A stretch of DNA of 64,000 bases, from positions 2,908-66,907 of the IMG/VR virus record IMGVR_UViG_3300044911_000926; one strand, given 5' to 3'. Positions within the stretch are counted from its first letter, which is position 1. The number at the start of each line of letters is the position of its first letter. The notes under the pieces are model-generated. The model was not told the DNA's origin, made no database searches, and was given only the letters and a program-made list of their open reading frames with translations. The translations under genes and the position numbers were made by a program. Of the stretch, positions 1 to 51,000 are shown piece after piece. The DNA is from a virus.

Positions 1-150
1 GTCACGACGGGTGTGACACGAGAACGACTTGTCCTTCCGTTCGCAGCGCCAGTTACCCGACGTGTCCCGGAATACGACGTAAGGAACGCCGAAGTACACG
101 GCATTGTCCTTGGCTTGGCGTAACGCCGCTTTGTAGCTGTTGGCGAGCAA
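1..150 (-). CDS. hypothetical phage protein (runs off window edge)
   Basis: TTG start with GAGGAG RBS; MLANSYKAALRQAKDNAVYFGVPYVVF... open to position 1. Confidence 0.55.
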   Translation of the reverse strand, partial: MLANSYKAALRQAKDNAVYFGVPYVVFRDTSGNWRCERKDKSFSCHTRRD

Positions 151-164
151 TTTGTACTCCTCGG

Positions 165-356
165 TTAGCGTGACTGGACAGGTTCGATGTAGCACCCCTT
201 ATTCGGGCCTAATTCGTGCTTATCGGCGTGCATCTGGTCGGTTGCCTCTCTCCGGGCAAGGCTGGTGCTTCCGGCCTCTACGACGAAACTACGAGGGCCT
301 CCGGACTTACGGTCGGTATAGTGTCGGACTTGAAAGAACGTGACTTTGTAGAGCAT
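165..356 (-). CDS. small protein, DpnD/PcfM-like (Y.VT...VEA.S..A motif)
   Basis: ATG at 356 after GGGAG; MLYKVTF...VVEAGSTSLAR; resembles 5127-5312 and 6793-6981. Confidence 0.6.
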   Translation of the reverse strand: MLYKVTFFQVRHYTDRKSGGPRSFVVEAGSTSLARREATDQMHADKHELGPNKGCYIEPVQSR

Positions 357-365
357 TGTGAACTC

Positions 366-430
366 CCAGGCTTGTGACTGGCTCAACACTGTGTTGAGGC
401 CGCATTATGCCCCGAAGGGCACACTCTGCG
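366..430 (-). ncRNA. twister ribozyme (P5-type permutation), copy 1
   Basis: CGCA GA GUG UGCCC-UUCG-GGGCA UAA UGCG GC [P3 CUCAACA/UGUUGAG] CCAG UCACAAGC CUGG; all twister core elements present; predicted cut U407/A406. Confidence 0.92.
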
Positions 431-847
431 TTACTCGAAGCGAACCATGCCGTCGTAGATGTACAGGTAGCACTCGCTGAACTTGTTAGCAATGTCGGAC
501 AACTTGTCCTTAACAGAGTCATCCCACCTGCCACAATCCCAGAAACCCGTACCGTGACCGTTGCGGGTCAACCAGAAGTCGTGACCGGCTAGGTCTAGGT
601 AATTCCATTCACCGGACTCTCGAAGGCAGTTGTCGCTGCACAACATGTCACCGGCTAACTCCCTGAACTTGTTACAGTCCTCGACGATCTTCTTGAGCGA
701 GTCAGGATGAATGTCGTGACCGCTGTACCGGTTCTCGAAAGGCTCGTCGAAATGTTCATCATCATCGTCTCTACTGATCGTCTCTGACCACAAGGCAGCA
801 ACGATGTAAGCCTTGGTGAATCGGTCAAGGCTGTCAAAGTTTGACAT
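431..847 (-). CDS. conserved phage hypothetical protein
   Basis: 138 aa, GGAG RBS, YIVAALWS...AGHDFWLTRNGHGTGFWD motif seen in phage early genes. Confidence 0.85.
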   Translation of the reverse strand: MSNFDSLDRFTKAYIVAALWSETISRDDDDEHFDEPFENRYSGHDIHPDSLKKIVEDCNKFRELAGDMLCSDNCLRESGEWNYLDLAGHDFWLTRNGHGTGFWDCGRWDDSVKDKLSDIANKFSECYLYIYDGMVRFE

Positions 848-867
848 AGCAATACTCCAGATAGGGT

Positions 868-928
868 TAGTGAAACCAAGCAGTCCCCTAGACGCTGCTG
901 CTGAACAGGGGATAGTCAGGTGCCACTA
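868..928 (-). ncRNA. unrecognised structured hairpin with AGCAGCAGC loop, copy 1
   Basis: outer stem UAGUGGCACC/GGUUUCACUA, inner stem UCCCCUG/UAGGGGA (G-U pair only on minus strand), 15-nt loop. Confidence 0.7.
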
Positions 929-979
929 GGCTCGGATCAGGTATTCTTCGTCACCGAAGTTGACAACGTGGTAGTCCGC
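875..979. repeat. direct repeat of ~1655-1762 (3' end of ArdA-like gene plus hairpin motif)
   Basis: 875-929 = 1655-1709 (55 bp identical); 933-961 = 1716-1744 (29 bp identical); encodes orphan ADYHVVNFGDEEYLIRA*. Confidence 0.95.
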
Positions 980-1004
980 TCGGTGTCAAATGTGGGTGCT
1001 TCGA

Positions 1005-1616
1005 CTACTTGCTCCCAACCGACTTCATCAGCGCCTCTGTGGCCTTTCGCTTCAACCATACAGAGATTCTCTTTTCTGACCATTCTGGCAGATGCTCGTC
1101 CACAGTGAAATTGATCCTTGCTTCGATGCCATTGCGAATCTTGACCGTAACGCTTGGCTCTGCCTCGTCTTTCAGTTGGTCGAAGGAATGGAATCCATCG
1201 ATACACGACTTGTTGGTGAGGGAAATATATTCTGCGACTTCCGAAGGTGCTTCCTTTGGGTCGATCCAAGGGCCTTTTCCTCGACGACGAACACCGGAAA
1301 CCTTGAGTCCTTGCGTTTTTGCTCCGATCCAGTTGCGGACTCTCGCTTGCCATCGTCGAGATACTTTCCCGCTGCTTGGCAGAGAGAATTGCCCGACCGG
1401 GTCTTTCCCTTCCCGAGCGACATAGCGGTAGTAGTCTCGCCACGCTTGAAGCTCTTGCTCGGCAGTTGGGACATCGGACTCGTCGCAGTCCTCGTGGTTC
1501 CCGTCACTGTCGCATTCGGAGTACGTTCCGTCGTCTGGATAGTACCAGTAGTGTGACAGATGCCATGTGTCGCAGTCGTCACAGAAGTACGGGATTGTTG
1601 AGATAATGTCATACAC
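1005..1616 (-). CDS. hypothetical protein
   Basis: 203 aa ORF, AAGGA RBS, N-terminal CxxC, lies between the two repeat copies. Confidence 0.75.
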   Translation of the reverse strand: MYDIISTIPYFCDDCDTWHLSHYWYYPDDGTYSECDSDGNHEDCDESDVPTAEQELQAWRDYYRYVAREGKDPVGQFSLPSSGKVSRRWQARVRNWIGAKTQGLKVSGVRRRGKGPWIDPKEAPSEVAEYISLTNKSCIDGFHSFDQLKDEAEPSVTVKIRNGIEARINFTVDEHLPEWSEKRISVWLKRKATEALMKSVGSK

Positions 1617-1649
1617 GACTTGTTCCTTGTGGTTCGAGTATTGAAGCAG

Positions 1650-1706
1650 GTAACACCAAGCAGTCCCCTAGACGCTGCTGCTGAACAGGGGATAGTCAGG
1701 TGCCAC
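1650..1706 (-). ncRNA. AGCAGCAGC-loop hairpin, copy 2
   Basis: outer stem GUGGCACC/GGUGUUAC; inner stem and loop identical to copy 1. Confidence 0.7.
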
Positions 1707-2092
1707 TAGCAGGAACGGATCAGGTATTCTTCGTCACCGAAGTTAACTACGCTGTAGTCTGCTTCCATGTTGTCGGCAGTCGCTTCCCAGTCGATGACGA
1801 TCCAACTAGGTAAGTCTTTTGGTATATAGCCGATGTCCTCAAGCAACTGCTGACAATACTCGACCCAGTAGTTACGGTGGATCAACGTCTCTCCATGCTC
1901 CCAGTCACCGCATCCTTCGCACTCCTCGATGAGTTCCTTGAGGGTTTCATACTCCGCTTCGTCATCAAAGTCCCACTCATCGGTATCTTGTGTTGCATCC
2001 TCTAACATATCACGCCTGCTCTGAAGTTCCTCGAAGCGAGCGATGACATCACGGCTGTCGATGACTTTGTCACCAGGTTCTGGTGTGGACAT
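1706..2092 (-). CDS. ardA: ArdA-like anti-restriction protein (acidic DNA mimic)
   Basis: very acidic; YCQQLLEDIGYIPKDLPSWIVIDWEATADNMEADY resembles the ArdA C-terminal domain. Confidence 0.7.
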   Translation of the reverse strand: MSTPEPGDKVIDSRDVIARFEELQSRRDMLEDATQDTDEWDFDDEAEYETLKELIEECEGCGDWEHGETLIHRNYWVEYCQQLLEDIGYIPKDLPSWIVIDWEATADNMEADYSVVNFGDEEYLIRSC

Positions 2093-2153
2093 TGTCTTGT
2101 TCTCCTAAGTAGTGGTAGTTGTGAAAATTTCGAAACATTATCGACCTGAACCG

Positions 2154-2468
2154 TCAGTTGGAATCTAGGTCACTCGGTCGATCGAACCGCAGATTGAAGG
2201 CAGCCTCGAACAGATCGTCAGGCCAAGGCTGTATGAATCCACCCTTTACGTCAACGTCGATCTTCACGTCCTTGCAGAACAGTTGAAGCTCGTCCGTTCG
2301 GAGGTCTCCGCTGCGGACTGCCTGAAGCAACCGCAGGATGTAGTGCTCGGAGCCTGTTAGCCGACTTATATCGGCTACTCTCCGATGGTTCCTGATGTCG
2401 CATTCGGCCTTAGCAATCTCCTGCTTGAAGTGATCGCATTGAAACTCGTCGTAATAGACGGTGATCAT
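2154..2468 (-). CDS. hypothetical protein
   Basis: 104 aa, GGAG RBS, in operon. Confidence 0.75.
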   Translation of the reverse strand: MITVYYDEFQCDHFKQEIAKAECDIRNHRRVADISRLTGSEHYILRLLQAVRSGDLRTDELQLFCKDVKIDVDVKGGFIQPWPDDLFEAAFNLRFDRPSDLDSN

Positions 2469-2495
2469 TGTCTTGCTCTCCAGGGTTGGTGGTGG

Positions 2496-2828
2496 TCAGT
2501 GAAAGCCGCGAAGCGTTTTGTACAACGCCCTGGCTTCGTTGCCGATTCGCATTGCCTCGTCCTTGTCTACAGGTCTGTTGCATCCGGCTGCCGTAAGCTC
2601 AGAGTCAGCATGGACCAGAATCTGTCGTGCATCCCTCAGCCGAAACGTCATCCAGTCAAGAGCGGCAAGTAATTGACCCTCTGCAACTTCGTTTCCACGC
2701 CGTAGGTTTTCCGCCATGTCGGCTATCATCGCAGGCACATTCCACTTGTCGGGCTTGTTCATGCAGTCCATCGTCTCTGCATAACCGGCTGGAACATATT
2801 CGTTTCCGTCATCATCTCGGACTGTCAT
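2496..2828 (-). CDS. hypothetical protein
   Basis: 110 aa, GAGG RBS. Confidence 0.75.
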   Translation of the reverse strand: MTVRDDDGNEYVPAGYAETMDCMNKPDKWNVPAMIADMAENLRRGNEVAEGQLLAALDWMTFRLRDARQILVHADSELTAAGCNRPVDKDEAMRIGNEARALYKTLRGFH

Positions 2829-2852
2829 CGATCTGTCCTCTATCTGGTAAGG

Positions 2853-2909
2853 GTAAAACCAACAATCCCCACGAGTGCTGCTGCTAAACGTGGGGCGAGC
2901 AGGGTTTAC
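2853..2909 (-). ncRNA. AGCAGCAGC-loop hairpin, copy 3
   Basis: inner stem CCCCACG/CGUGGGG, loop UUUAGCAGCAGCACU, outer stem GUAAACC/GGUUUUAC. Confidence 0.7.
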
Positions 2910-3448
2910 TCTACACGACGACGAACACGGATCTCGTCAGGACCGATCATTCTGTACCATTCGTAGTGACCGACATAGACGATGCCAGAGTCGGTCGCAT
3001 TGGGCTGGTACTGGTACGCTTCGTCGAGTTCCCAGTTGTCCCAATGGTGGCTCTTTGATGCTCCGACCTGAAAGTAAAACTTACACCAACGAGTGCAGAA
3101 GCAACGTAGCTGGTAGTCGTTCTCGTAACCCATGTTGACCATGCGTTCGAGCAACTTGTCGAAGGCGTTGTACGCTTCGTGAATCTCGTCCATCGGCACT
3201 GGCTTCAAGAGGTCAAGCCAGATGTCGTAGGCGACGTGTTCGCTGTCGGCACAGATCAGGTGAGTTGGTCCGTACTCGAAACCGAACAGGAACATCATGC
3301 CGTCACCGATGGCATCATTGCCGTAGTATTCGACCTTGGTTAAGTGGTCACGATCCTTGTCGTAGTAAAAGAAGTCGAACTTTGCCATGCCGTTGATGAG
3401 GTCAACGACATCAGCAAGGTTGATGTCAGATGTATGCGTTTCTGTCAT
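2906..3448 (-). CDS. hypothetical protein
   Basis: ATG at 3448 (MTETHTSD...) after a GGAAG leader like neighbouring genes. Confidence 0.75.
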   Translation of the reverse strand: MTETHTSDINLADVVDLINGMAKFDFFYYDKDRDHLTKVEYYGNDAIGDGMMFLFGFEYGPTHLICADSEHVAYDIWLDLLKPVPMDEIHEAYNAFDKLLERMVNMGYENDYQLRCFCTRWCKFYFQVGASKSHHWDNWELDEAYQYQPNATDSGIVYVGHYEWYRMIGPDEIRVRRRVE

Positions 3449-3472
3449 AGCAATCTTCCAGGTTAAAGGGGT

Positions 3473-3533
3473 AAGTGAAACCAACTATGCCGCGAGACGC
3501 TGCTGCTGGGTCGCGGCGAGGCAGGGTCCACTC
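3473..3533 (-). ncRNA. AGCAGCAGC-loop hairpin, copy 4
   Basis: inner stem GCCGCGA/UCGCGGC, loop CCCAGCAGCAGCGUC, outer stem GAGUGGACC/GGUUUCACUU. Confidence 0.7.
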
Positions 3534-4170
3534 AACGAGGGGAACTGGGGTGAAGTCGGTCGCGGCGAGCCTTCCACAGAAGGCGTGCAAGGTCGTCACG
3601 CGGGATCTGTCCAGACTCGACCCTAATACTGACTCCGCTTCCGTCGTCGTAATACGGTTCGGTAGCGTACTTCAAGAACAGTTCTCGCAAGTCATCGTTG
3701 CTAACGTCATCGAGCAGCGATCTGGTCGATTCGTAGAGAGCGAAGTCATCGGAAAGGCGATCGCGGAATCCGGTGCATCCCCAACTATCCCACGACTGCT
3801 CAAATTCCTCCCACTCACGATTAGACCAATCTTGGTCGTCGAGTGCTGGGTAATTCTCCAGCGATCGAGCCATGTCATAGGCTGACTTGAGAGCCTTCTC
3901 ATCCTCTGGCGATACGATGATGATCTCGTACCAACCTGGTCCCCAATGACCGAATCGGTGGACTTCGACAGTCTCAGACTCGCCACCTAGACCGTCTAGG
4001 AACGAATGGAAATTGGACTCGTCTAACGGTCCACTGTCACGGGTTCTGCTGACTGGCATGACGAACCACTTGGAACGTTCCGTGTCCTCGTCGTCGATGT
4101 TGATGTTGCGATCAAAGGCGGTAGGGCTATGGTCGCCGTATCGCTCGAAGCAATCGTCGTACACTGACAT
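3532..4170 (-). CDS. conserved acidic phage hypothetical protein
   Basis: 212 aa; RTRDS..LDESNF...HRFGHWGPGWYE...LENYPALDD motif. Confidence 0.85.
   Translation of the reverse strand: MSVYDDCFERYGDHSPTAFDRNINIDDEDTERSKWFVMPVSRTRDSGPLDESNFHSFLDGLGGESETVEVHRFGHWGPGWYEIIIVSPEDEKALKSAYDMARSLENYPALDDQDWSNREWEEFEQSWDSWGCTGFRDRLSDDFALYESTRSLLDDVSNDDLRELFLKYATEPYYDDGSGVSIRVESGQIPRDDLARLLWKARRDRLHPSSPR
3535..3554 (-). promoter_or_regulatory. TTCAC-N5-TTCCCCTCGT motif (putative phage-sigma promoter)
   Basis: one of 7 exact copies, all co-oriented with downstream genes. Confidence 0.65.
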
Positions 4171-4180
4171 TGCAATTCTC

Positions 4181-4251
4181 CCAGGCTTGTGACTGGTTGC
4201 TCACATCGAGCAAGCCGCATTAAGCCCTGCACAGGCAAGGCTCACTCTGCG
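4181..4251 (-). ncRNA. twister ribozyme (P5-type), copy 2
   Basis: CGCA GA GUG AGCCUUGC/GCAGGGCU UAA UGCG GC UUGCUC/GAGCAA CCAG UCACAAGC CUGG; predicted cut 4222/4221. Confidence 0.92.
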
Positions 4252-4809
4252 TTAGGACTTCGGAGTGTAGATACACTCGTCGTTGTCTACTCGGTAGACA
4301 GGGTAAGGGCACTTGCCTTCCTCGAACCAGTCAGGGCCGAAGCAGTAAGCCTTGGCACCGTCATCACAAGGATTCTTGAGGTAACAGGCACCGGGAGCAC
4401 AGGGAGAGCAGAACTGTGCTCTGGTGTAGTAGATCGACTTGGTGATGAAGATGTCAGGACTATCGTAACCCTGCTCTGCCGTGATCTCCTCATCGTCAAC
4501 AAAGTGTGACTGAGGCTCATCGCCGTATGCGTACTCGCTCCCCATGTAGTGTTCACAGCGTTGGCAGGCGTAGTCTCGGTCGATCGTCCTGCGGTAGTCG
4601 TCGTAACTCTCGTGCTTTGACTCGTCGTACTCCACTGCATCACCGCCACAATTGGGACACGCTGGACTGCCGTAGAACCCTTCAGCAGACTCGTACCACG
4701 CACTGCCAACAGCATGGTGAGGGATGACACCGTATCGAATATCGGCGTCTCGGTCGATGTTTGACATACCCATGCCGTAGTCAATACCGCGATAATCAGT
4801 CTTGGACAT
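4252..4809 (-). CDS. Cys-rich (Zn-binding) phage hypothetical protein
   Basis: ATG 4809 with GGAG; CPNC, CQRC and CSPCAPGAC motifs. Confidence 0.8.
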   Translation of the reverse strand: MSKTDYRGIDYGMGMSNIDRDADIRYGVIPHHAVGSAWYESAEGFYGSPACPNCGGDAVEYDESKHESYDDYRRTIDRDYACQRCEHYMGSEYAYGDEPQSHFVDDEEITAEQGYDSPDIFITKSIYYTRAQFCSPCAPGACYLKNPCDDGAKAYCFGPDWFEEGKCPYPVYRVDNDECIYTPKS

Positions 4810-4837
4810 ACTAAAACTCCAGAACAAGGGAATGGAC

Positions 4838-4853
4838 GCGACCCCGGGGTCGC
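4838..4853. repeat. perfect palindrome GCGACCCCGGGGTCGC, copy 1
   Basis: exact 16-mer, 19 bp downstream of promoter-like motif 4873-4892. Confidence 0.95.
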
Positions 4854-4872
4854 ATTGAAAACCGGACACCAA

Positions 4873-4892
4873 ACGAGGGGAAACGGGGTGAA
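4873..4892 (-). promoter_or_regulatory. TTCAC-N5-TTCCCCTCGT motif
   Basis: exact copy, intergenic. Confidence 0.65.
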
Positions 4893-4899
4893 GTCGGCC

Positions 4900-5130
4900 T
4901 CAGAGCCGGTTCTTGTAGCCGATCGTCCGCGTCACGCCACGGAACCTGACTTTGTTGCCAACGATACGAAACTTGACGTGTTCAACATTCTTGATTCCCC
5001 ATCCGTATTCAACCTCGACAGTGTCTTTGTCAAGGTTGATCGACCGGACATTGCCACGTCCGTACTGCCAGTTGATACGCTTGATCGTGTCCTCAAGCTG
5101 ATCTAGGTCTATCTTTGCAGGCATTATCAA
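4900..5130 (-). CDS. hypothetical protein
   Basis: 76 aa, overlaps the upstream stop codon. Confidence 0.7.
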   Translation of the reverse strand: MIMPAKIDLDQLEDTIKRINWQYGRGNVRSINLDKDTVEVEYGWGIKNVEHVKFRIVGNKVRFRGVTRTIGYKNRL

Positions 5131-5312
5131 TCTCCAGATGGCTCCACGAGCAGGATTTCTTCGTCACACTCTACTGGAGGAGAATTGAACAAGACTTCTC
5201 CAGATTCAAGCATTTCATTGACTTTTTCCCAAGCGTCATCGCCTGATTCGGCTTCGACAGCCACCCTCTTTGTGTAGCGATCGATCCTCTCAACTGTCAC
5301 GATGTACTGCAT
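5127..5312 (-). CDS. DpnD/PcfM-like small protein
   Basis: MQYIVTVERIDRYTKRVAVEAESGDDAWEKV. Confidence 0.7.
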   Translation of the reverse strand: MQYIVTVERIDRYTKRVAVEAESGDDAWEKVNEMLESGEVLFNSPPVECDEEILLVEPSGD

Positions 5313-5321
5313 AACCAATCT

Positions 5322-5384
5322 CCAGGCTTTGAACTGGCTAGCGAAGTGCTAGGCCGCATTACACCCCGAAGGGTGTCATCTGCG
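5322..5384 (-). ncRNA. twister ribozyme (P5-type), copy 3
   Basis: CGCA GA UGA CACCC-UUCG-GGGUG UAA UGCG GC CUAGC/GCUAG CCAG UUCAAAGC CUGG; T1 pseudoknot covaries (UGA/UCA); predicted cut 5361/5360. Confidence 0.92.
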
Positions 5385-5440
5385 TTTAGTTTCGTCGCAT
5401 GATCTACTCCATAAAACGAGGAAATTGATGTCATCTGCGT

Positions 5441-5752
5441 TCAACTACCAACACCAGTCCTTCGCTCAAGGTCCATCTGCTCCCACTTGCTTCCACACTC
5501 GATGCACATGGACAACGCTACGGCATAGCGATCGTCGTCGATTCCACAAGAAGCAACGCCGAACAGGTCTGCCAACTTGTGCGCCCAGAGGATGCCGACA
5601 GGGTGATTACAGATGTCATCCGTTGCGGTGACTCCAAGGAGCCTGAGTTCATCCATTGCAAAGACAAAACTACGGACAATGCCTAGCGGGTTACATGCGT
5701 CCTGGACATCGACTGCCTCTTTTGCAAGGTGTCCAAACTTATCATCTAACAT
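5441..5752 (-). CDS. hypothetical protein
   Basis: 103 aa, GGGAG RBS; AKEAVDVQDACNPLG motif. Confidence 0.8.
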   Translation of the reverse strand: MLDDKFGHLAKEAVDVQDACNPLGIVRSFVFAMDELRLLGVTATDDICNHPVGILWAHKLADLFGVASCGIDDDRYAVALSMCIECGSKWEQMDLERRTGVGS

Positions 5753-5796
5753 GAAATCTACTCCCGAAAACGAGGAACTCGAAAAACCGACACCAA

Positions 5797-5816
5797 ACGA
5801 GGGGAAACGGCGTGAA
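5797..5816 (-). promoter_or_regulatory. TTCAC-N5-TTCCCCTCGT motif
   Basis: exact copy, intergenic. Confidence 0.65.
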
Positions 5817-5879
5817 ACCGACCTCGGACAACACGCACGCCATCCCCGACGATACCAGCCTATAAAGACCGGGTATCAT

Positions 5880-6420
5880 CAGGTTGGCGATTGCTTGACT
5901 TCAATTGCGTTGTATCAGTGACTCAGGTAACTCGGGCTTATGCTACGGCTTTTTGCTGGAATCGTCTGTGGACCCGGACGCTGGCGTGCTTTACGAGATC
6001 AACTACTCGTTCGTTGCCGGGAAAAACTCCTGATGGAGAAGCCATATTTCACCTCTGTATTCGCCTAGCCCGTCTCGGTCGTGACCGATACTCTAGGCTT
6101 CCTTGACGGTGGGATTAACACCGCTCACTATCACTTTCCGGCTCTGCTTTCTCGGGTGCTACAGCCGGTCAACCGATCCCCGAAGGCTTTGTTATCACCT
6201 AGACAACGCAATTGTCGATTACTCGATCCGTGAAACGCTTACAGCCAAGTGATTGCTCACCTGGCTGTTGGCGTAGACTGTTGTGGCGGAACCCAACGCA
6301 CAACAAGATTCGGTTGATCGTTAAGAGTGTCATGAATTGGGTTCCTTTGCCGCCTTGTCTAAGGGCGACATTAACACTCTATCTACTGTCCCGAAGGAGT
6401 CAATAGGGAAGCGATGAAAA
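5880..6420 (-). ncRNA. large structured ncRNA, ROOL-like
   Basis: ~540 nt with no credible ORF; long-range helices 5902-5913/6203-6214 (12 bp) and 6169-6176/6310-6317 cross each other (pseudoknot); many local hairpins; size and architecture recall ROOL. Confidence 0.65.
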
Positions 6421-6450
6421 TCACCGATTGACACCTTGACGATGGAACCG
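6421..6450. repeat. duplicate of the 3' end of CDS 7074-7292
   Basis: 28/30 identical to 7074-7103 (RFHRQGVNR*). Confidence 0.9.
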
Positions 6451-6753
6451 TTAGGCGTCCTTGGCTTTGGATATCGCTTCGCCGACAGCTTCCAAGACCT
6501 TCGAGTCGCTGAATGGAGCAGGTTGCCCACCAAGCATCCACTTCTGCACCAGTTCACACGCTTCCAGAAGGTCTGGCGCTGCGGCGATCAGCCTAGCGTT
6601 TGCTTGTCGCTGCTCGTTTTCATCCTTGGCTTGAGGGTGACTGTTCAGTTCTGTCGTGCTGGCAATTTGGTATCCACTTGTCGTTTGAACGTGAAATCTT
6701 GGATTGGCTCCACGTCCGAGGTGAAACATCCAAGGTCCAGGTGTGTGTCTCAT
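6451..6753 (-). CDS. conserved phage protein (HTPGPW...ANARLIAAAPDLLEA family)
   Basis: motif widespread in phage early regions. Confidence 0.85.
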   Translation of the reverse strand: MRHTPGPWMFHLGRGANPRFHVQTTSGYQIASTTELNSHPQAKDENEQRQANARLIAAAPDLLEACELVQKWMLGGQPAPFSDSKVLEAVGEAISKAKDA

Positions 6754-6792
6754 TTAGCAATACTCCAATAAAAGGGTGAAACGGACGGGAAT

Positions 6793-6981
6793 CTAGCAAC
6801 CATAGCCCTGACAGGCACCAGTGCCGTTGTCTAGGCAGTATTGGCATTCGGCATACAGGACCGACTCACCATCCTTGGTCGTCAGTTCAACCTTATCAAT
6901 GGCTGACTCAGACGATTCGGCTTCAACAGTGACAGTCTCCAAGAACCGTTCGACACGTTCGACGGTGACTTGATAACGCAT
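6793..6981 (-). CDS. DpnD/PcfM-like small protein
   Basis: MRYQVTVERVERFLETVTVEAESSESAIDKV; GGAG RBS. Confidence 0.7.
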   Translation of the reverse strand: MRYQVTVERVERFLETVTVEAESSESAIDKVELTTKDGESVLYAECQYCLDNGTGACQGYGC

Positions 6982-7008
6982 AGCGATACTCCAGTAGAGG
7001 GGTATAAA

Positions 7009-7072
7009 ACGGGCTTGCAACCGTCTGCCGTAGGGCAGGCCGCATTAACGCCCCGGAGGGCGCTGCTCTGCG
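7009..7072 (-). ncRNA. twister ribozyme (P5-type), copy 4
   Basis: CGCA GA GCA GCGCCC/GGGCGU UAA UGCG GC CUGCC/GGCAG ACGG UUGCAAGC CCGU; T1 covaries (GCA/UGC); predicted cut 7047/7046. Confidence 0.92.
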
Positions 7073-7073
7073 A

Positions 7074-7292
7074 TTACCGATTGACACCCTGACGATGGAA
7101 CCGATCGTAAAGATCGTCCCACCTCACTGACAGGAAGCTATCCAGAACTCTGGCAACGCTATCCACCACAGCTTCAGTGTCGAAGTCATCCCCAAGTCGA
7201 GACTCATGCTTGGCGTGAGACATCATCTCGCAGATCATTGCGAGTGCATTCTGTTCCCTTTCGCTGAACTGAATCTTACTGTCACCTGACAT
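7074..7292 (-). CDS. hypothetical protein
   Basis: 72 aa, TGGAGTATCGCTATG leader shared with other early genes. Confidence 0.75.
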   Translation of the reverse strand: MSGDSKIQFSEREQNALAMICEMMSHAKHESRLGDDFDTEAVVDSVARVLDSFLSVRWDDLYDRFHRQGVNR

Positions 7293-7380
7293 AGCGATAC
7301 TCCAAAAGTAGTGTACGGACTGTGGGAAAAACTACCCATTTTTATCCACAACAGCACAAAAGTAGTGTACGAACAAACAG

Positions 7381-7396
7381 GCGACCCCGGGGTCGC
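7381..7396. repeat. perfect palindrome GCGACCCCGGGGTCGC, copy 2
   Basis: exact; 10 bp downstream of promoter-like motif 7407-7426. Confidence 0.95.
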
Positions 7397-7406
7397 ATCC
7401 AACCTA

Positions 7407-7426
7407 ACGAGGGGAACGACCGTGAA
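7407..7426 (-). promoter_or_regulatory. TTCAC-N5-TTCCCCTCGT motif
   Basis: exact copy. Confidence 0.65.
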
Positions 7427-7582
7427 ATCGACCGTCTCTGGCAGCACTGGTCAATCCCATCCCCATCCCCTCCGTGACGGGTTATTCGCGACTAGGGTAA
7501 AATCTAGTCGCGAATACCTATCGCTAGACTATCCGCACGATACCCTCTACGGGGTCGAAAAACGGGTCTGCTACGCTTCCAA

Positions 7583-7602
7583 ACGAGGGGAAACGGTGTG
7601 AA
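7583..7602 (-). promoter_or_regulatory. TTCAC-N5-TTCCCCTCGT motif
   Basis: exact copy. Confidence 0.65.
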
Positions 7603-7793
7603 ACCCACCCGGATCGATCGGAAGCGTAGGCGGGGCTAATTTGGGGGCTAAGAATCGAACCCGATAGAATCGGTGGGGAGAATACTGGTGACAAGCTTGA
7701 CACCAGAACGGCGCGAAGCGTAGAGGCTTCGGGTGATAATCGATCGGGAATAGATGGGGCCGGGTTGGCCTAGGATCGATCGGAATAGAAACG

Positions 7794-7827
7794 AAAAAAC
7801 CCCATGAGGAATTGACCTCATGGGGTT
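7794..7827 (-). terminator. intrinsic terminator
   Basis: 12-bp stem AACCCCATGAGG/CCTCATGGGGTT followed by a T-run on the minus strand. Confidence 0.85.
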
Positions 7828-7853
7828 GGCGATTGTCGTTAGATTGTGGGCGA

Positions 7854-8201
7854 CTATGCGGGAAGCTTACCACGTCGCGTCGACGCTGCTATCGTGTCCG
7901 CAAGTGGAGCGTCGCGCTTGGTCGACTCTTTAACTTCCTCTTTTGCTGCTTGCGCTTCCCGCGCTTGCTTATCGGCATGCGCTGCTCGAACCTTACCTTC
8001 TAGTTCGATTGCATCCCATGCGGCATTGAAAAACGACTCCGGATCGTCCTGGATGGCGCGTATCGTTTTGATACTTATCGCGTGTTTTGCATTGGCAACC
8101 CTAACCATCGGCACGAACCTGCCATACTTATCGACGAAGCCATCGGGTGAAAACATGCCGCACGAACCGACAACCTCGGACAATTTGCGTACATTCGACA
8201 T
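7854..8201 (-). CDS. hypothetical protein
   Basis: 115 aa, GGAAGG RBS, followed by terminator. Confidence 0.65.
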   Translation of the reverse strand: MSNVRKLSEVVGSCGMFSPDGFVDKYGRFVPMVRVANAKHAISIKTIRAIQDDPESFFNAAWDAIELEGKVRAAHADKQAREAQAAKEEVKESTKRDAPLADTIAASTRRGKLPA

Positions 8202-8255
8202 TTTAAAAACCTTCCAAATTGAGAGAGAAACAAGAAACGGACAAAAGCGGACACC

Positions 8256-9002
8256 TTACGAGGGGAATAGCACTGCCAGAGATGAATTTACTAGCACTTC
8301 AGCAGCAATGCGCGATGGGTAACGGTAAAGCGCCCGTTCCGATATTCCGAGGGATTCTGCAACGATGGGGCGTGTCGCGCTTGTGGACATTGCTAGGGCG
8401 ATATATGCCGATCGTGCGGACACAATGCCCGACGATATGAGCCTTTCCGCTTCGTCATCGGGGTCGACATAATCCGGACGATCGTCGGGCATCGATTCGC
8501 GAAGCATAACTTGTTTACGATCAATTCGGGCGCCGTCAATCAACGTTCGGTGACCATTTCTCAGATCGTCCAAAATGTCGCGAACAGCTTGCCTAGCGCC
8601 TTGATGGGGGTCGACTAGGGCATAACGCTCCGGGTTGCTCAGAATACGTTCTAGCGCTTCTTGTGGCATATCTTCGGGGTCGAACCATGGCGAGCGACGT
8701 TGTAGCCTATCGACGATTCGCGGGTGCATGGCGATACGTCTCGCCGATTCGTGAAATGCGAGAAGATAGTCGCACACTTCATCAGATTCGTCGGGGATAG
8801 GATCGACACTTGCGGGTGGATCGTATTCGTAGGGGACAATAGGAAACGGTATCCCGTAAACCGTTGATAGCAGATCAATGTCGTATGCTTCGGGGTGTTG
8901 GATAAGACCGGTGAAACCGTCACGTTGACACTGTCGGGGGGTTCGTTGTGTAGCAATGGCGACGGGTTCGCCTAGGGTGTCTTTTAGTTCGATTGTTTGC
9001 AT
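8256..9002 (-). CDS. putative ECF-like RNA polymerase sigma factor
   Basis: region-2-like FDPEDMPQEALERIL and C-terminal HTH TRPIVAESLGISERALYRY. Confidence 0.6.
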   Translation of the reverse strand: MQTIELKDTLGEPVAIATQRTPRQCQRDGFTGLIQHPEAYDIDLLSTVYGIPFPIVPYEYDPPASVDPIPDESDEVCDYLLAFHESARRIAMHPRIVDRLQRRSPWFDPEDMPQEALERILSNPERYALVDPHQGARQAVRDILDDLRNGHRTLIDGARIDRKQVMLRESMPDDRPDYVDPDDEAERLISSGIVSARSAYIALAMSTSATRPIVAESLGISERALYRYPSRIAAEVLVNSSLAVLFPS

Positions 9003-9047
9003 GGTTTAGACTTCCAAAAGGGTAACAGGATACGATCGGGACGGAGT

Positions 9048-9063
9048 TGTCACGATCGCGACA
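9048..9063. promoter_or_regulatory. TGTC-N8-GACA operator next to leftward TTGACA-N16-CACAAT promoter (9092-9065)
   Basis: TGTCACGATCGCGACA. Confidence 0.6.
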
Positions 9064-9127
9064 GATTGTGACAGACTATCGGAACGTGTCAAGTGTAACT
9101 TGATAAAACCTCAGACGATCCACCAAC

Positions 9128-9147
9128 ACGAGGGGAATCGACGTGAA
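9128..9147 (-). promoter_or_regulatory. TTCAC-N5-TTCCCCTCGT motif upstream of the sigma-like gene
   Basis: exact copy. Confidence 0.65.
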
Positions 9148-9662
9148 GCGACAACACCTGACCTATCGGGTTGATAGTCGACAATACCCCAACAGTGTAC
9201 TAGCAGGGTGGTACACATGGATCAAAGAAATGCCGCATTTTACGGGGTTTTATGGGCCTTTTTAGTGACGTTTACGGTAGTCGATAGCGTATGGTCGAAG
9301 AATTACTAGGCAATCACGTGAAAACGTAGGCAATGGCAAGGGTGTAGCGAGACCCGGGGTGGAACCCCATCGGCAGCCCAGGTTAGGTTACATTCCCCCT
9401 GGACCTTTTTTGCCCAAAACAGTCCTCTCAAAACGAGACACCTCAAGACATCTCCTTCGTTGTATCCGCACGGGCAAAGTTGACTTCGGGGTTGGTCAGG
9501 GTGTTGTTTCCCTTCAGAGGTTCTTCTGGCCAACGGTCTATTGGATTGCTCCTCGATCCGGAACTCTCCTTCTAGCTTAGAAACTGGACAGCAGCAGTTG
9601 ACACGATTGCGACAGTCGCTAGGATGTGGTTCGTGTTGGGTTTCTCGAACTGGGAGTGGATT

Positions 9663-12087: not shown

Positions 12088-12339
12088 TTGAACATTCATA
12101 CAGTTTACGTCCACACGAGATGTCCATTTGCTCCGGTGTGGGACTATTACAAGGTTGTCGTCAGGACTCCCGACTTCCTGAAATGCGAGGATCTTCAGTC
12201 GATCTGCGACAAAGTTCGAGGACTTGAGATGACTCAAGAGAATGTCATGAGGGAGATCAGGAGCAAACTGAATAGGTCTTGCAGGGTCACTGTGACTGGA
12301 AGGCACGGATCGAACGGAAGGCTTGAAATTACTGGATAG
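12088..12339 (+). CDS. small QueF-like/T-fold protein
   Basis: TTG start after GGAG; RCP...Y...TQE...GRH pattern; directly upstream of the TGT-like gene. Confidence 0.5.
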   Translation: MNIHTVYVHTRCPFAPVWDYYKVVVRTPDFLKCEDLQSICDKVRGLEMTQENVMREIRSKLNRSCRVTVTGRHGSNGRLEITG

Positions 12340-13108
12340 TAAATTGATCAGATACCACGGGACACCAATAACGCCATCTTGCTCTGCCGTTCAGATATTG
12401 AGCGGCAGGCATGGTCTGGTGAGTTTTGAACACCCAGACCAGATAGGGATGGTTGCTGAAATCTGTCAGTCCTTCGTTCTTGACAACGGTGCTTTTTCTC
12501 ACTGGAAGCAGGGGATGGGGGTGATTGACATCGACGCTTACGAAGAATGGATAGAAGAATGGAGCCTGCATCCAGGTTTTGATTGGTGCTTGATACCGGA
12601 CGTTATTGATGGAAGCGAGTTAGATAACATTGATTTAATAAAAGACTGGATTAGCAGAAACGCTTCAATAAAGCACCAGAGCGTTCCAGTGTGGCATCTT
12701 CATGAATCTCTTGGCTGGCTTCATGAAATGGCATTTAATCTTGGTCTAAAAAGGATAGCGATTGGATCTTCTGGAGACTACAGCGTCCCAGGGTCTGACG
12801 AGTGGGAGTTTAGGATGAGCGAGGTCATGGATGTAATTTGTGATGCAGAAGGCAGGCCAAGAGTAAAGGTCCACGGACTAAGGATGATGGACCCGAAGTT
12901 GTTCAGTAGATACCCATTTTCAAGCGTCGATTCTTGCAATGTTGCAAGGAACATTGGGATAGACAAGCAGTGGGAGAGTTTTAAGTATGCCGGGCAGATA
13001 AGCAAGGCGGTGCGAGGTGACATCATTGCGCACAGAATTGAATCTCACGCGGCAGCTTCTGTCTGGGTTAAGTGCCACCAAGAAAGCCAAGGGCTTTTAT
13101 TTGAGTAA
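12323..13108 (+). CDS. DpdA/tRNA-guanine transglycosylase-like protein
   Basis: LDNGAFS, PDVIDG, PVWH, IAIG, HGL and SVDS motifs of the TGT/DpdA superfamily. Confidence 0.7.
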   Translation: MKLLDSKLIRYHGTPITPSCSAVQILSGRHGLVSFEHPDQIGMVAEICQSFVLDNGAFSHWKQGMGVIDIDAYEEWIEEWSLHPGFDWCLIPDVIDGSELDNIDLIKDWISRNASIKHQSVPVWHLHESLGWLHEMAFNLGLKRIAIGSSGDYSVPGSDEWEFRMSEVMDVICDAEGRPRVKVHGLRMMDPKLFSRYPFSSVDSCNVARNIGIDKQWESFKYAGQISKAVRGDIIAHRIESHAAASVWVKCHQESQGLLFE

Positions 13109-48059: not shown

Positions 48060-51000
48060 ATGGCGACAGATGATGTTATCCAGAGGATACTAAATCCAGG
48101 CGGAGTGTCGGCTGCTAGGGCTGCGTCTCGTCAGCAGGCACCCTACGTCAATGAGGAAGAAGAACGCAGTCTTATCGGCAACTTGCGTGACAAGACGCTG
48201 ACTACACTCGGTGTTATTGGGAACACTTTGTCGCTGCCGTTGTCATCGGTGATGGACGTTGCGTCCAGTGTCGTGACAGGCCAGATAAAGAACCCTTTCG
48301 ACCAGTACCTCACTCCGTTCAGCGGTGAGAATAGGACAACAGGCCAGGACCTGTTGGAGCAGACGAACATCTTTGGACCAGAGCCATCTTGGGGTAAGTC
48401 GATTGCAGGCTTCGGCCTTGAAGTCGCTGCCGATCCGCTAACGTACCTGACGCTTGGTGGATCTGCACTTGGCAAGGCTGGCCAAGCAGCCAAGAAGGCT
48501 GGGCTGCTCGACGAAGCGCAGCGAGTGACGCGACTCAAGACTGGTGCTGCTCCAGGTACGGTTGGTCCACGCCAAGCGAGACTGTCAACGAGCCTTCAGG
48601 ACATCGCTCAATACTCAACCGGAGATACTCGCAGGAGAGCACAGGACCTGCTGGACAGGCTGACGCCGGAGGAGGCTGCTGCTCCGCTCGGAGGGATGGT
48701 TGGATTCGGACTCCCGTTTGCTGCTCCGAGGATGGTCACCGGAACCGGAGCCAGAGCACAGACCGTTGCCAGAGCGATGGACACTGCTGGTCGTGCAGTC
48801 CGGTTTGGAAAGATCCCTGGCACGGACATTCAGAATCCACTCGGTGCGATCCTCGGTGCGTTCGACGCTCGATCCAAGGGTGCAAAGGAAGCCGCCGTTG
48901 CCGAGTCCACGGGAAGGCTATTTGATGAGTTGCCAAAGTCGGCAGCGGCGATCAGAGCATCGACAGCGAACCAAGCAACGTACCTTGAGGACTTGGTCAA
49001 GAACCCAAACAACCCGAGTATTCCCGCAGTCGAGGACTACCTTTCCAAAAGGCGTTCTTTCTGGGGTCCTAATGTCAAGGCTCCGGTTACGGACGAAGAA
49101 AAGTACATGGAATTGTCCGACGCGATCAGAGAGGGACAGGAGGGAATCGTCGATCTTAATGACATGCCAGAAGAACTTCGCTGGATTTCGGCACAGATGC
49201 AGTCTGAAGCCGACGCCATGCCGGGGCAGATGCGTCGGGCTGGTGGCAGGGTTTCTGAACTTGCAGACAAGAACTTATACGCAGCAAGGTACAAGTCCCA
49301 AGGTCCAAAGGCTGCATCTCCTCGCGACATCGAGGCGTCCACGTTCGATCCTTCTCAGGGATTCAGGAGGCAGGACTTCCTTCGTGACATCGATGGTGGG
49401 ACCGTTGCGTTCCGCAGGAAGATTGTCATGGACCCAGAACTGCAAAGGAAACTCGCAGACAAGGCGAACACTGTCGATGACATAGCGGAGTACCTGAGAA
49501 ACACTCACTCCGGCTGGCTGGCTGATGACTACACGAGTTTCTACCGGACAGGTAAAGACAAGGGCAAGGCATACGTCAAGAAAGGCCGATACCAGAAGAT
49601 GGCTAGGATGCTGTACGGCACCGAGCCAGAGGTGTTGAAGCGAGGGTTCTTCGGCAACAGCGTATTGTCTGACCACATGATGCGGAGGATGTCGCACGTC
49701 AAGGCAACGTCCACGCTCAAGAACATGACCGACCTGTTGTCCTCGAAGGACACGGCAGGCATGGGTCGCTACATCAAGGGCGAAGGCTCGTGGCGAAGCA
49801 GCGGTGTTAACGTCGGAGGACCTGACGACTCGACGATGAAGTTGTCGAAGTTCCTGAAGATGATGGACCTTCCTGAGTTCGCTATACACAAGGAACTCAA
49901 GACCGACACGTTGCGCAAGGGAGGCATCCTAAAGGTCTTGTCCAAGAACATGGGGATCAGCACCAAGGACTTGCGAAAGGCAAGGATAGACAAGCGGATT
50001 GCTGACGACCTGTATCGTGTACACAAGGCTGCGACAACCCGTGGTCCGATGGATGAGATCCTAGAGATGACGGACTCAGCCACGAACATGATGAAAACGT
50101 TCTCGACCACGATCCGTCCTGGGTTCCACGTCCGCAACTTGGCGTCAGGCTGGACGCAGAACGCGATGCTCGGGATGTGGGATAAGCAGTCTGCTGGCTG
50201 GTCGATGGACCTGCTGCAAGGCCGAACGATGGCTGACTCGCGGAAGATCGAGTGGGTCGGTCGAGACTACGCTCGTCGTGCTATGCAGGCAGGCTGGGGC
50301 TACGATGACATCGCAACCAAGTTGCGAGATGCAGGGTACAGCAACTCTCAGGTAGCGTCCGTTATCAAGTCTGCTAGGAGGATGGTTCCAAAGAGCAAGA
50401 GAGTTAAGCCTCTAAGGTCTGCCAGCGAGGAGTCGTTCAATCTTCCTAGTGCATCCGTTCCGGCAAAGGTCGATATAGATGGCGTTGCTAGGCCAGCAGT
50501 CGATAGCACCGGATCTCCGATTCACACCACCGAAGAAGGAGTAAGGAACTTCTGGAAGAACTTCAAGGACAGCAAGGTGGTGGATGCGGAAGGCAAGCCT
50601 CTTGTCGTTTACCACGGGACCCCAGAGTCTGGGTTCAATAAATTCTCTACAGAAAATAAGACCGTGAAGATGGATGAAGGCTTCATGGGGAAAGGCCATT
50701 ATTTTACAACAAGTCCAGATACTGCTAAGTGGTACTCAATGAAAGCAGGTATGTCTCCAGGTACATACCCTGTGTATTTGTCTGTAAAGAATCCAGTTGT
50801 GATGTCTAAGAAGCCGCTTTCTGGATCTGAGATAGTCGAATCAATACCAGATTACCCAGAGCTTCAGAAAAGAACGGAAGATCTAGCAAGCCAATACATT
50901 AACTCGTCCATAGATGCTCCGGCATCTTGGGCGTCTGTCGGTCCAAGCAAGGAACAGGAGATCTCCAGTGCATACTCGAAAGCATTTTCTGTTGCAGCAA

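Follow-up and report, generated by a model that had tools for sequence, protein, structure and literature searches.

Type-P5 twister ribozymes as likely message-splitting elements in the small-gene arm of an uncultivated lake phage

The window analyzed here is a 64,000-nucleotide (nt) stretch of viral DNA, bases 2908-66907 of a 66,907-base record (G000) from an uncultivated lake phage whose genome is estimated to be complete. Four elements on its minus strand, named Rz1 to Rz4 by position (Table 1), are identified as type-P5 twister ribozymes, and a fifth copy lies in the same record ahead of the window. All five stand at junctions between the small genes of a leftward arm, where they are likely to be functional ribozymes that cleave themselves within the messages of the arm and so split them into separate units. 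Clustered phage ribozymes with a proposed role in message processing are already known, and what is added here is a comparison with a relative, the 50-kb viral record G001, from which this phage differs by two units that each consist of a gene plus a twister.

The whole window was scanned with Rfam cmscan at gathering thresholds, which returned exactly four matches, all to Twister-P5 (RF02684; gathering score 37.6 bits), all on the minus strand and all full length (model positions 1-58 of 58). A permissive scan (E ≤ 1) found no Rfam match in the window beyond these four. A preliminary description of this DNA had placed four twisters on the minus strand and had named a covariance-model search as a check; the model recovers each of them at exactly the coordinates first given, with 42.5-47.5 bits and thus above the gathering score in four of four cases. 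All copies lie on the coding strand, and the Rfam scans place none in the remaining ~55 kb of the window. Because the family has matches in none of 14 control genomes, the matches are far beyond chance. A megablast search of window positions 1-9000 against 50,697 phage records returned no match. The assignment of the elements to the type-P5 twister ribozymes is supported, since the Rfam model matches at the exact coordinates and every stem, together with pseudoknot T1, shows covariation.

The covariation was assessed in an alignment of 12 twister copies, five from this phage and seven from G001, of which nine are distinct. The layout common to the four window copies is CGCA-GA-NNN, a P1 hairpin, UAA-UGCG-GC, a P3 hairpin and then P4 with the loop GU-NNN-AAGCC, as had been described and as is present in the sequence of each. 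The core segments C.CAGA, AAUG.GGC, GU and AAGCC are invariant in 12 of 12 copies, including the A on the 3' side of the bond to be cut, and the stems differ. Standard pairs occupy 97.0% of the pair cells, as against 28-35% when the partners are slid by one to three columns, both sides have changed in 18 of the 24 pairs, and none of 500 shuffles reached the observed covariation score. Compensating substitutions occur in P1, P2, P3, P4 and T1. P1 is 90% paired and shows a compensating change in each of its six pairs; P2 (found as CGCA/UGCG, CACA/UGUG and CUCA/UGAG) and P4 are both 100% paired, with compensating changes in one of four and two of three pairs, respectively; and T1 is 100% paired, with all three pairs changed on both sides. 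The earlier statements that P1 and P3 differ and yet stay paired, and that the T1 triplets covary, are borne out, the triplets being exactly as first written. In the second pseudoknot, T2, which we take to be the GC after P2 pairing with the GC of AAGC, both pairs can form but never vary, so that T2 contributes no evidence from covariation.

The circular permutation at P5 proposed in the preliminary description is apparent in the order of the elements: P1 and P3 are hairpins, and the match starts at the 3' strand of P2 and ends at the 3' strand of P4. Element order, invariant core, T1 covariation and full-length matches are all shared with RF02684, and no class-defining difference from that family was found in this comparison of sequences. 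By eye, the sequences before CGCA and after P4 in Rz1 have no complementarity that would form a P5 stem. A minimum-energy model free of pseudoknots recovers the nested stems in four of the five copies. The twister class is defined, in the available text of PMC5408937, by a U-A cleavage site, three essential stems and two pseudoknots; the cut positions proposed earlier for the window copies were counted again and fall on the UAA before UGCG. That the core stays invariant while compensating changes have replaced the stem sequences around it indicates that the active fold is still under selection, and we consider self-cleavage of the twister copies very likely.

The junctions at which the copies stand are built alike. 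Rz1, Rz2 and the fifth copy start 0 nt past a TAA, and Rz3 and Rz4 start 1 nt past a stop codon. The distance to the next start codon is 9 nt for Rz1 and Rz3, 10 nt for Rz2, 27 nt for Rz4 and 6 nt for the fifth copy. The last stem (UGG or CGA) extends into the ribosome-binding site (GGGAG, GGAG or GAGG) in four of the five copies: the UGG of Rz3 overlaps the GGAG site of the next gene, and the last stem of the fifth copy overlaps a GAGG site. The gene after Rz4 starts behind a GGAG site. The spacing of 0-1 nt past a stop that had been given for the four window copies therefore stands for each of them, with the caveat that the stop before Rz3 is that of a four-codon mini-ORF (ORF, open reading frame), the true upstream gene ending at 5441. 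Just past the stop of that gene is a truncated twister start, which we read as the scar of an earlier rearrangement at a twister. The mini-ORF, which lies between the truncated copy and Rz3, seems to be what remains of a gene start, and its leader resembles the leader of another gene (repeat D12). The same scar is present in G001, decayed by substitutions, and the GGAG reads GGAU there.

We propose that each ribozyme, as it emerges from the polymerase, would fold through P2, P1, P3, P4, T1 and T2 and would cleave itself at the N-A bond just ahead of AUGCGGC. On the upstream product, the stop codon would remain, together with a further 24-30 bases (as counted in the five copies), and the P1 hairpin would form the end, bearing a 2',3'-cyclic phosphate. 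The downstream product would begin with a 5'-hydroxyl (5'-OH); its P3 and P4 hairpins would come next, with the ribosome-binding site and start codon directly behind them. The outcome would be separate messages whose stability and translation are independent of their neighbours, much as is achieved by engineered ribozyme insulators. In insulators such as RiboJ, which are synthetic and hammerhead-based, a ribozyme before the ribosome-binding site strips away the RNA that precedes it, and the message then begins with a structured 5'-OH leader. The placement before the ribosome-binding site is the same in this phage, whereas the elements are natural and their insulating effect is putative. Cleavage itself, the chemistry of the ends (from the known reaction of the family) and the effects on stability and translation are what we infer in this scheme.

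Message splitting, long proposed for such elements and the usual inference for their kind, agrees with what was seen and is the best-supported reading of the array, although several observations weigh against it. The benefit that would follow, whether stability or insulation, is conjectural. The minimum-energy fold of Rz1, with pseudoknots ignored, is an alternative structure. None of the sequencing runs listed as containing the stretch is recorded as RNA; two wastewater runs guessed to be RNA hold small shares of it (0.12-0.14). The arm also contains a terminator-like hairpin and a promoter-like repeat, D1 (described below), so that segmentation by ribozymes would be at most one of several ways in which its messages are delimited. 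Finally, no Rfam match was obtained in 69,405 bases searched at six loci of less closely related phages, each with a homologue (39-54% identity) of the gene at 3532-4170, which follows Rz2. A ribozyme is therefore not needed to express this gene family, and the conservation of ribozyme position could be studied in one close relative only. Judged from these loci, the ribozymes are an accessory feature of the lineage and are not tied to the gene after Rz2.

Two other explanations would change what the elements do. The copies might be inactive relics, or structural RNA elements such as stabilising hairpins, that no longer cleave; some computationally predicted ribozymes indeed fail to cleave when tested (PMC8782182, available text), Rz3 has the lowest score of the set (42.5 bits), and the fifth copy carries C instead of U before the cleaved bond. 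That base is, however, described as non-conserved in the class in the available text of PMC5408937, and a core that stays invariant across 12 copies, while compensating changes turn over the stems, makes loss of activity improbable. We give even less credence to a scheme in which genes bracketed by ribozymes are released with a 5'-OH and a 2',3'-cyclic phosphate and are then ligated by a host enzyme of the RtcB type, giving circular or spliced RNAs. The ends known for the family are suitable as RtcB substrates, and successive twisters do enclose gene blocks in this phage and, in G001, individual genes. The same idea was raised for prophage hammerheads in a study whose available text reports that no such products were detected (PMC3088659). 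The segments between predicted cuts measure 1.1-3.8 kb in this phage, and a Pfam scan of 95 ORFs found no RNA ligase, RtcB or polynucleotide kinase domain, a result that is weak given that most of the ORFs match nothing.

The count of four ribozymes in the preliminary description is correct for the window and too low for the phage. The fifth twister, outside the window, has a CACA/UGUG P2 and a C-A at the cleavage site and is without P3, an optional stem. Closer to the start of the record, a match to the hammerhead family (RF00163) lies below the gathering score of 34 bits and has an intact core, with CUGAUGA, GAAAC, GUC and three stems; it reads AGCCCA-CUGAUGAG-UCC/GGA-CGAAAC-GCC/GGC-GUC-UGGGUU. 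The CUGAUGA box contains, as its UGA, the stop codon of the upstream gene, and the element is followed by a GGAG site and an ATG. The element is identical in G001 and thus offers no evidence from covariation. Altogether, the arm of this phage carries five twisters and, probably, one hammerhead, all on the same strand.

Arrays of this kind have precedents. In prophages, multiple hammerheads flank single genes or short blocks, and processing of long transcripts was proposed; native transcripts of ~2 kb were cleaved in vitro, and cleavage in vivo was reported for an ardA cluster (Perreault et al., 2011, PMC3088659, available text). The present arm resembles those clusters in having several ribozymes on one strand that flank single genes or short variable blocks of phage DNA, and where ardA lies beside the prophage hammerheads, the arm holds a weak ArdA-like match and one hammerhead. 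It differs in being made up mainly of twisters, known so far as sequences, whereas the prophage elements are hammerheads with cleavage demonstrated in vitro and in vivo. A review from 2019 saw in twister and hammerhead ribozymes possible agents of polycistronic processing and took their location close to phage genes to suggest a role in phages (PMC6765202), and the role of genomic copies is described as largely speculative in the available text of PMC5408937 and PMC6765202. A literature search whose coverage left most subscription journals outside found no detailed account of twister-P5 arrays in phage operons. The phage thus adds no new kind of element and offers a compact test case, with five twisters and one hammerhead on one strand and predicted cut sites, in which the cut products would have a hairpin at one end and, at the other, a structured 5'-OH leader just ahead of the ribosome-binding site.

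Comparison with G001 bears on how the array changes. The two records are ~90-97% identical in most collinear blocks and 69-81% identical in two, and G001 carries seven twisters, two more than G000, each extra copy coming with one extra gene (~320 nt, ~100 codons). At both sites, the G000 twister is, through P3, the upstream one of the two G001 copies (100% and 98.75% identity), and its downstream flank is the flank of the downstream G001 copy. Because the upstream copy matches the 5' part, the downstream flank matches that of the second copy and the switch falls inside the shared core CCAGUCACAAGCCUGG, a unit of gene plus twister has on two occasions been gained or lost, the recombination having taken place inside the core of the ribozyme. 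The pair, differing by exactly two such units, could be used to test both the role of cleavage in expression and the core as an exchange site.

These two differences, with their junctions inside the core, give some weight to the idea that the twisters serve chiefly to delimit single-gene cassettes that can be exchanged, with the core as a short DNA homology for gain and loss of units and cleavage as the means of position-independent expression, the roles in DNA and RNA going hand in hand. We regard this as possible and, on present evidence, doubtful. In its favour, over 69 nt Rz1 matches at 100% identity a G001 copy that has different sequence on either side, a truncated twister start and a remnant gene start precede Rz3, and the phage encodes a YqaJ-like recombination exonuclease. 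Contigs of one of four lake metagenome runs join 434 to 812/842, 4895 to 5317 and 7073 to 7358, each joint abutting a twister edge, but the sides of these joints are short (30-41 letters), show 88% likeness and are unreliable. The idea also rests on two events in one phage pair, and a conserved element between variable genes shows alignment breaks at its edges under any mechanism. In the wider viral set described below, the cases in which only one flank is shared form three and two independent groups among the matches listed, from which no general rule follows. That twisters are special recombination hot spots was considered separately: three of five are touched by the ends of synteny blocks (P ~0.002 under random placement), but when the comparison is made with gene junctions overall, of which 10 of 27 show synteny breaks, P = 0.25, and this fairer null leads us to reject the claim as a general one.

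A further step, which we hold to be slightly less probable again, would make the twister a movable 5' terminus for a gene cassette of natural origin, its core a crossover site at which single genes of an operon are gained, lost or swapped, and its cleavage the means by which each gene is expressed alike wherever it lands. If true, phage ribozyme arrays would be a cassette system. The logic is comparable to that of the promoter/stem-loop cassettes proposed for early genes of T4-type phages.

To place the array among other viruses, a collection of viral contigs was scanned for the core pattern, which gave at least 121 stretches, of which 118 passed a loop-geometry filter and 99 were distinct. 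Among the matches listed, T1 is fully paired in 94 of the 99 distinct copies, versus 41% with shuffled partners; 36 of 108 copies begin 0-1 nt past the stop of a frame of at least 50 codons, versus 0.9% of 57,393 control positions; 54 of 108 begin 0-6 nt past such a stop, versus 3.2% of the same controls; 32 of 108 have no frame of at least 50 codons within 60 nt; and 78 of 107 are followed within 80 nt by a ribosome-binding site and a start codon. A viral twister-P5 directly after a stop codon is thus a simple quantitative rule that can be checked widely. Five other viral records contain 7, 6, 3, 7 and 5 matches on the same strand, with 1 of these 28 below the cut-off. The proposal that the twister travels with its downstream gene was not supported: it had 76 pairs against 2, yet these reduce, among the matches listed, to 3 against 2 independent groups.

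Two variants recur in this wider set. Fourteen contigs of ~78-150 kb (L011, L014, L016, L018, L020, L021, L051, L055, L074, L084, L091, L092, L094 and L121) share a long twister of 78-91 nt, after which a script found conserved sequence without an open frame and start signal, and the upstream side varies; the long twister may be the start of a non-coding RNA. In 11 others (L010, L032-L034, L036, L062, L066, L071, L086, L089 and L099), a second CGCA(G/U) box lies ~12-20 nt past the twister and before the ribosome-binding site, for example CCGCAGAGGAG. This second box could pair with the UGCG strand that would be freed by cleavage.

Table 1. Ribozymes, flanking genes and other features. Positions are those of the window, except where marked G000 (positions of the full record).
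Feature	Position	Strand	Details
Rz1, Twister-P5	366-430	minus	46.7 bits; T1 GUG/CAC; predicted cut 407/406
Rz2, Twister-P5	4181-4251	minus	46.6 bits; T1 GUG/CAC; long P1, eight pairs in the alignment; predicted cut 4222/4221
Rz3, Twister-P5	5322-5384	minus	42.5 bits; T1 UGA/UCA; predicted cut 5361/5360
Rz4, Twister-P5	7009-7072	minus	47.5 bits, E 8.9e-7; P1 GCGCCC/GGGCGU, P3 CUGCC/GGCAG, T1 GCA/UGC; predicted cut 7047/7046
Fifth Twister-P5	G000 1199-1253	minus	48.4 bits, above gathering score; 1.7 kb before window start
Hammerhead (RF00163), probable	G000 132-180	minus	28.5 bits, E 3.7e-4 (permissive scan of first 3.3 kb of record)
Gene after Rz1	165-356	minus	63 amino acids, no family match
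Gene before Rz1	431-847	minus	138 amino acids; phrog_1915, unknown function, E 3.5e-24; TAA abuts Rz1
Gene after Rz2	3532-4170	minus	212 amino acids; weak PHROG matches, unknown function
Gene before Rz2	4252-4809	minus	185 amino acids, no family match; TAA directly abuts Rz2
Gene after Rz3	5127-5312	minus	61 amino acids, no family match
Mini-ORF	5386-5400	minus	Four codons and stop (ATG CGA CGA AAC TAA), behind a GGAG site
Truncated twister start	5429-5440	minus	First 11 nt of Rz3 and the preceding A (ACGCAGAUGACA); 1 nt past the stop of 5441-5752
True upstream gene of Rz3	5441-5752	minus	Stop at 5441
Gene after Rz4	6793-6981	minus	62 amino acids; DpnD/PcfM-like, Pfam PF14207, 26.7 bits (cut-off 25)
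Gene before Rz4	7074-7292	minus	72 amino acids, no family match; TAA 1 nt before Rz4
D1 repeats	3531-3561, 4869-4899, 5793-5823, 7403-7433, 7579-7609, 9124-9154	minus (sense)
Terminator-like hairpin	7798-7827	minus	12-pair stem and T run; upstream of the twister-bearing genes
Best sigma-70-like promoter for the arm	9065-9092	minus	TTGACA-16-CACAAT with TG, 10/12 positions; consensus match only
Queuine tRNA-ribosyltransferase-like protein	12323-13108	plus	phrog_887, E 7e-59
Polyvalent protein	48060-53447	plus	1795 amino acids; ADP-ribosyltransferase domain PF18760, E 5.8e-27

The ribozyme arm consists of ~28 small minus-strand genes that run from window position 9002 down to the start of the record. 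Nearly all are without a family match, the exceptions being the DpnD/PcfM-like gene after Rz4 and an ArdA-like match at 1706-2092 that is below threshold (22.1 bits versus 27). The preliminary description had assigned the twisters to one early polycistronic mRNA. The arm may reasonably be called early from its layout and gene content, with divergent sigma-70-like promoters, small ORFs that are mostly unassigned, the DpnD/PcfM-like protein and the weak ArdA-like match. That it is one transcript is doubtful: the hairpin at 7798-7827 and the six D1 motifs suggest that there is probably more than one, and there may be several transcripts that would each be cut once or twice. The hairpin comes from a consensus scan only, in which shuffles had at least as many such sites in total. 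In the gap at 9003-9623, two sigma-70-like promoter matches face each other in divergent orientation, and one D1 copy lies just upstream of the promoter match for the arm.

D1 is a repeat of 31-48 nt with the invariant letters TTCAC-N5-TTCCCCTCGT, and its six copies always lie 40-82 nt before a start codon. Three units of the arm are ordered as a D1 motif, one gene, a twister and then one or two genes. G001 adds seven further copies, and there the motif follows the direction of the genes; one of the seven is on the opposite strand, ahead of a plus-strand gene. A pattern scan of the viral contigs returned 44 stretches, 35 after removal of near-duplicates, and the extended motif was recognized by eye only in the G001 copies and in four further loci (L136, L138, L142 and L145), the others looking like chance. 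D1 was also considered as another ribozyme, a candidate that was dropped when no Rfam match (E ≤ 1) and no consensus structure in 15 copies were found. D1 resembles a promoter or operator. Two of its copies are followed, after 4-13 nt and ahead of the ribosome-binding site, by the same palindromic hairpin, GCGACCCCGGGGUCGC, at 4838-4855 and 7381-7398, an arrangement that resembles a leader composed of a promoter plus a stem-loop.

The remainder of the window is that of a tailed phage and is encoded on the plus strand, with a major head protein, large terminase, portal and tail tube. The recombination exonuclease mentioned above and a helicase are also encoded, as is a serine recombinase on the minus strand. 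The queuine tRNA-ribosyltransferase-like protein suggests 7-deazaguanine modification of the phage DNA. Within the arm, a 60-nt intergenic repeat with a hairpin is found at 870-929, 1650-1709 and 3475-3534. One metagenome contig joins 874 to 1655, which fits a deletion of the gene at 1005-1616 between two of these 60-nt repeats.

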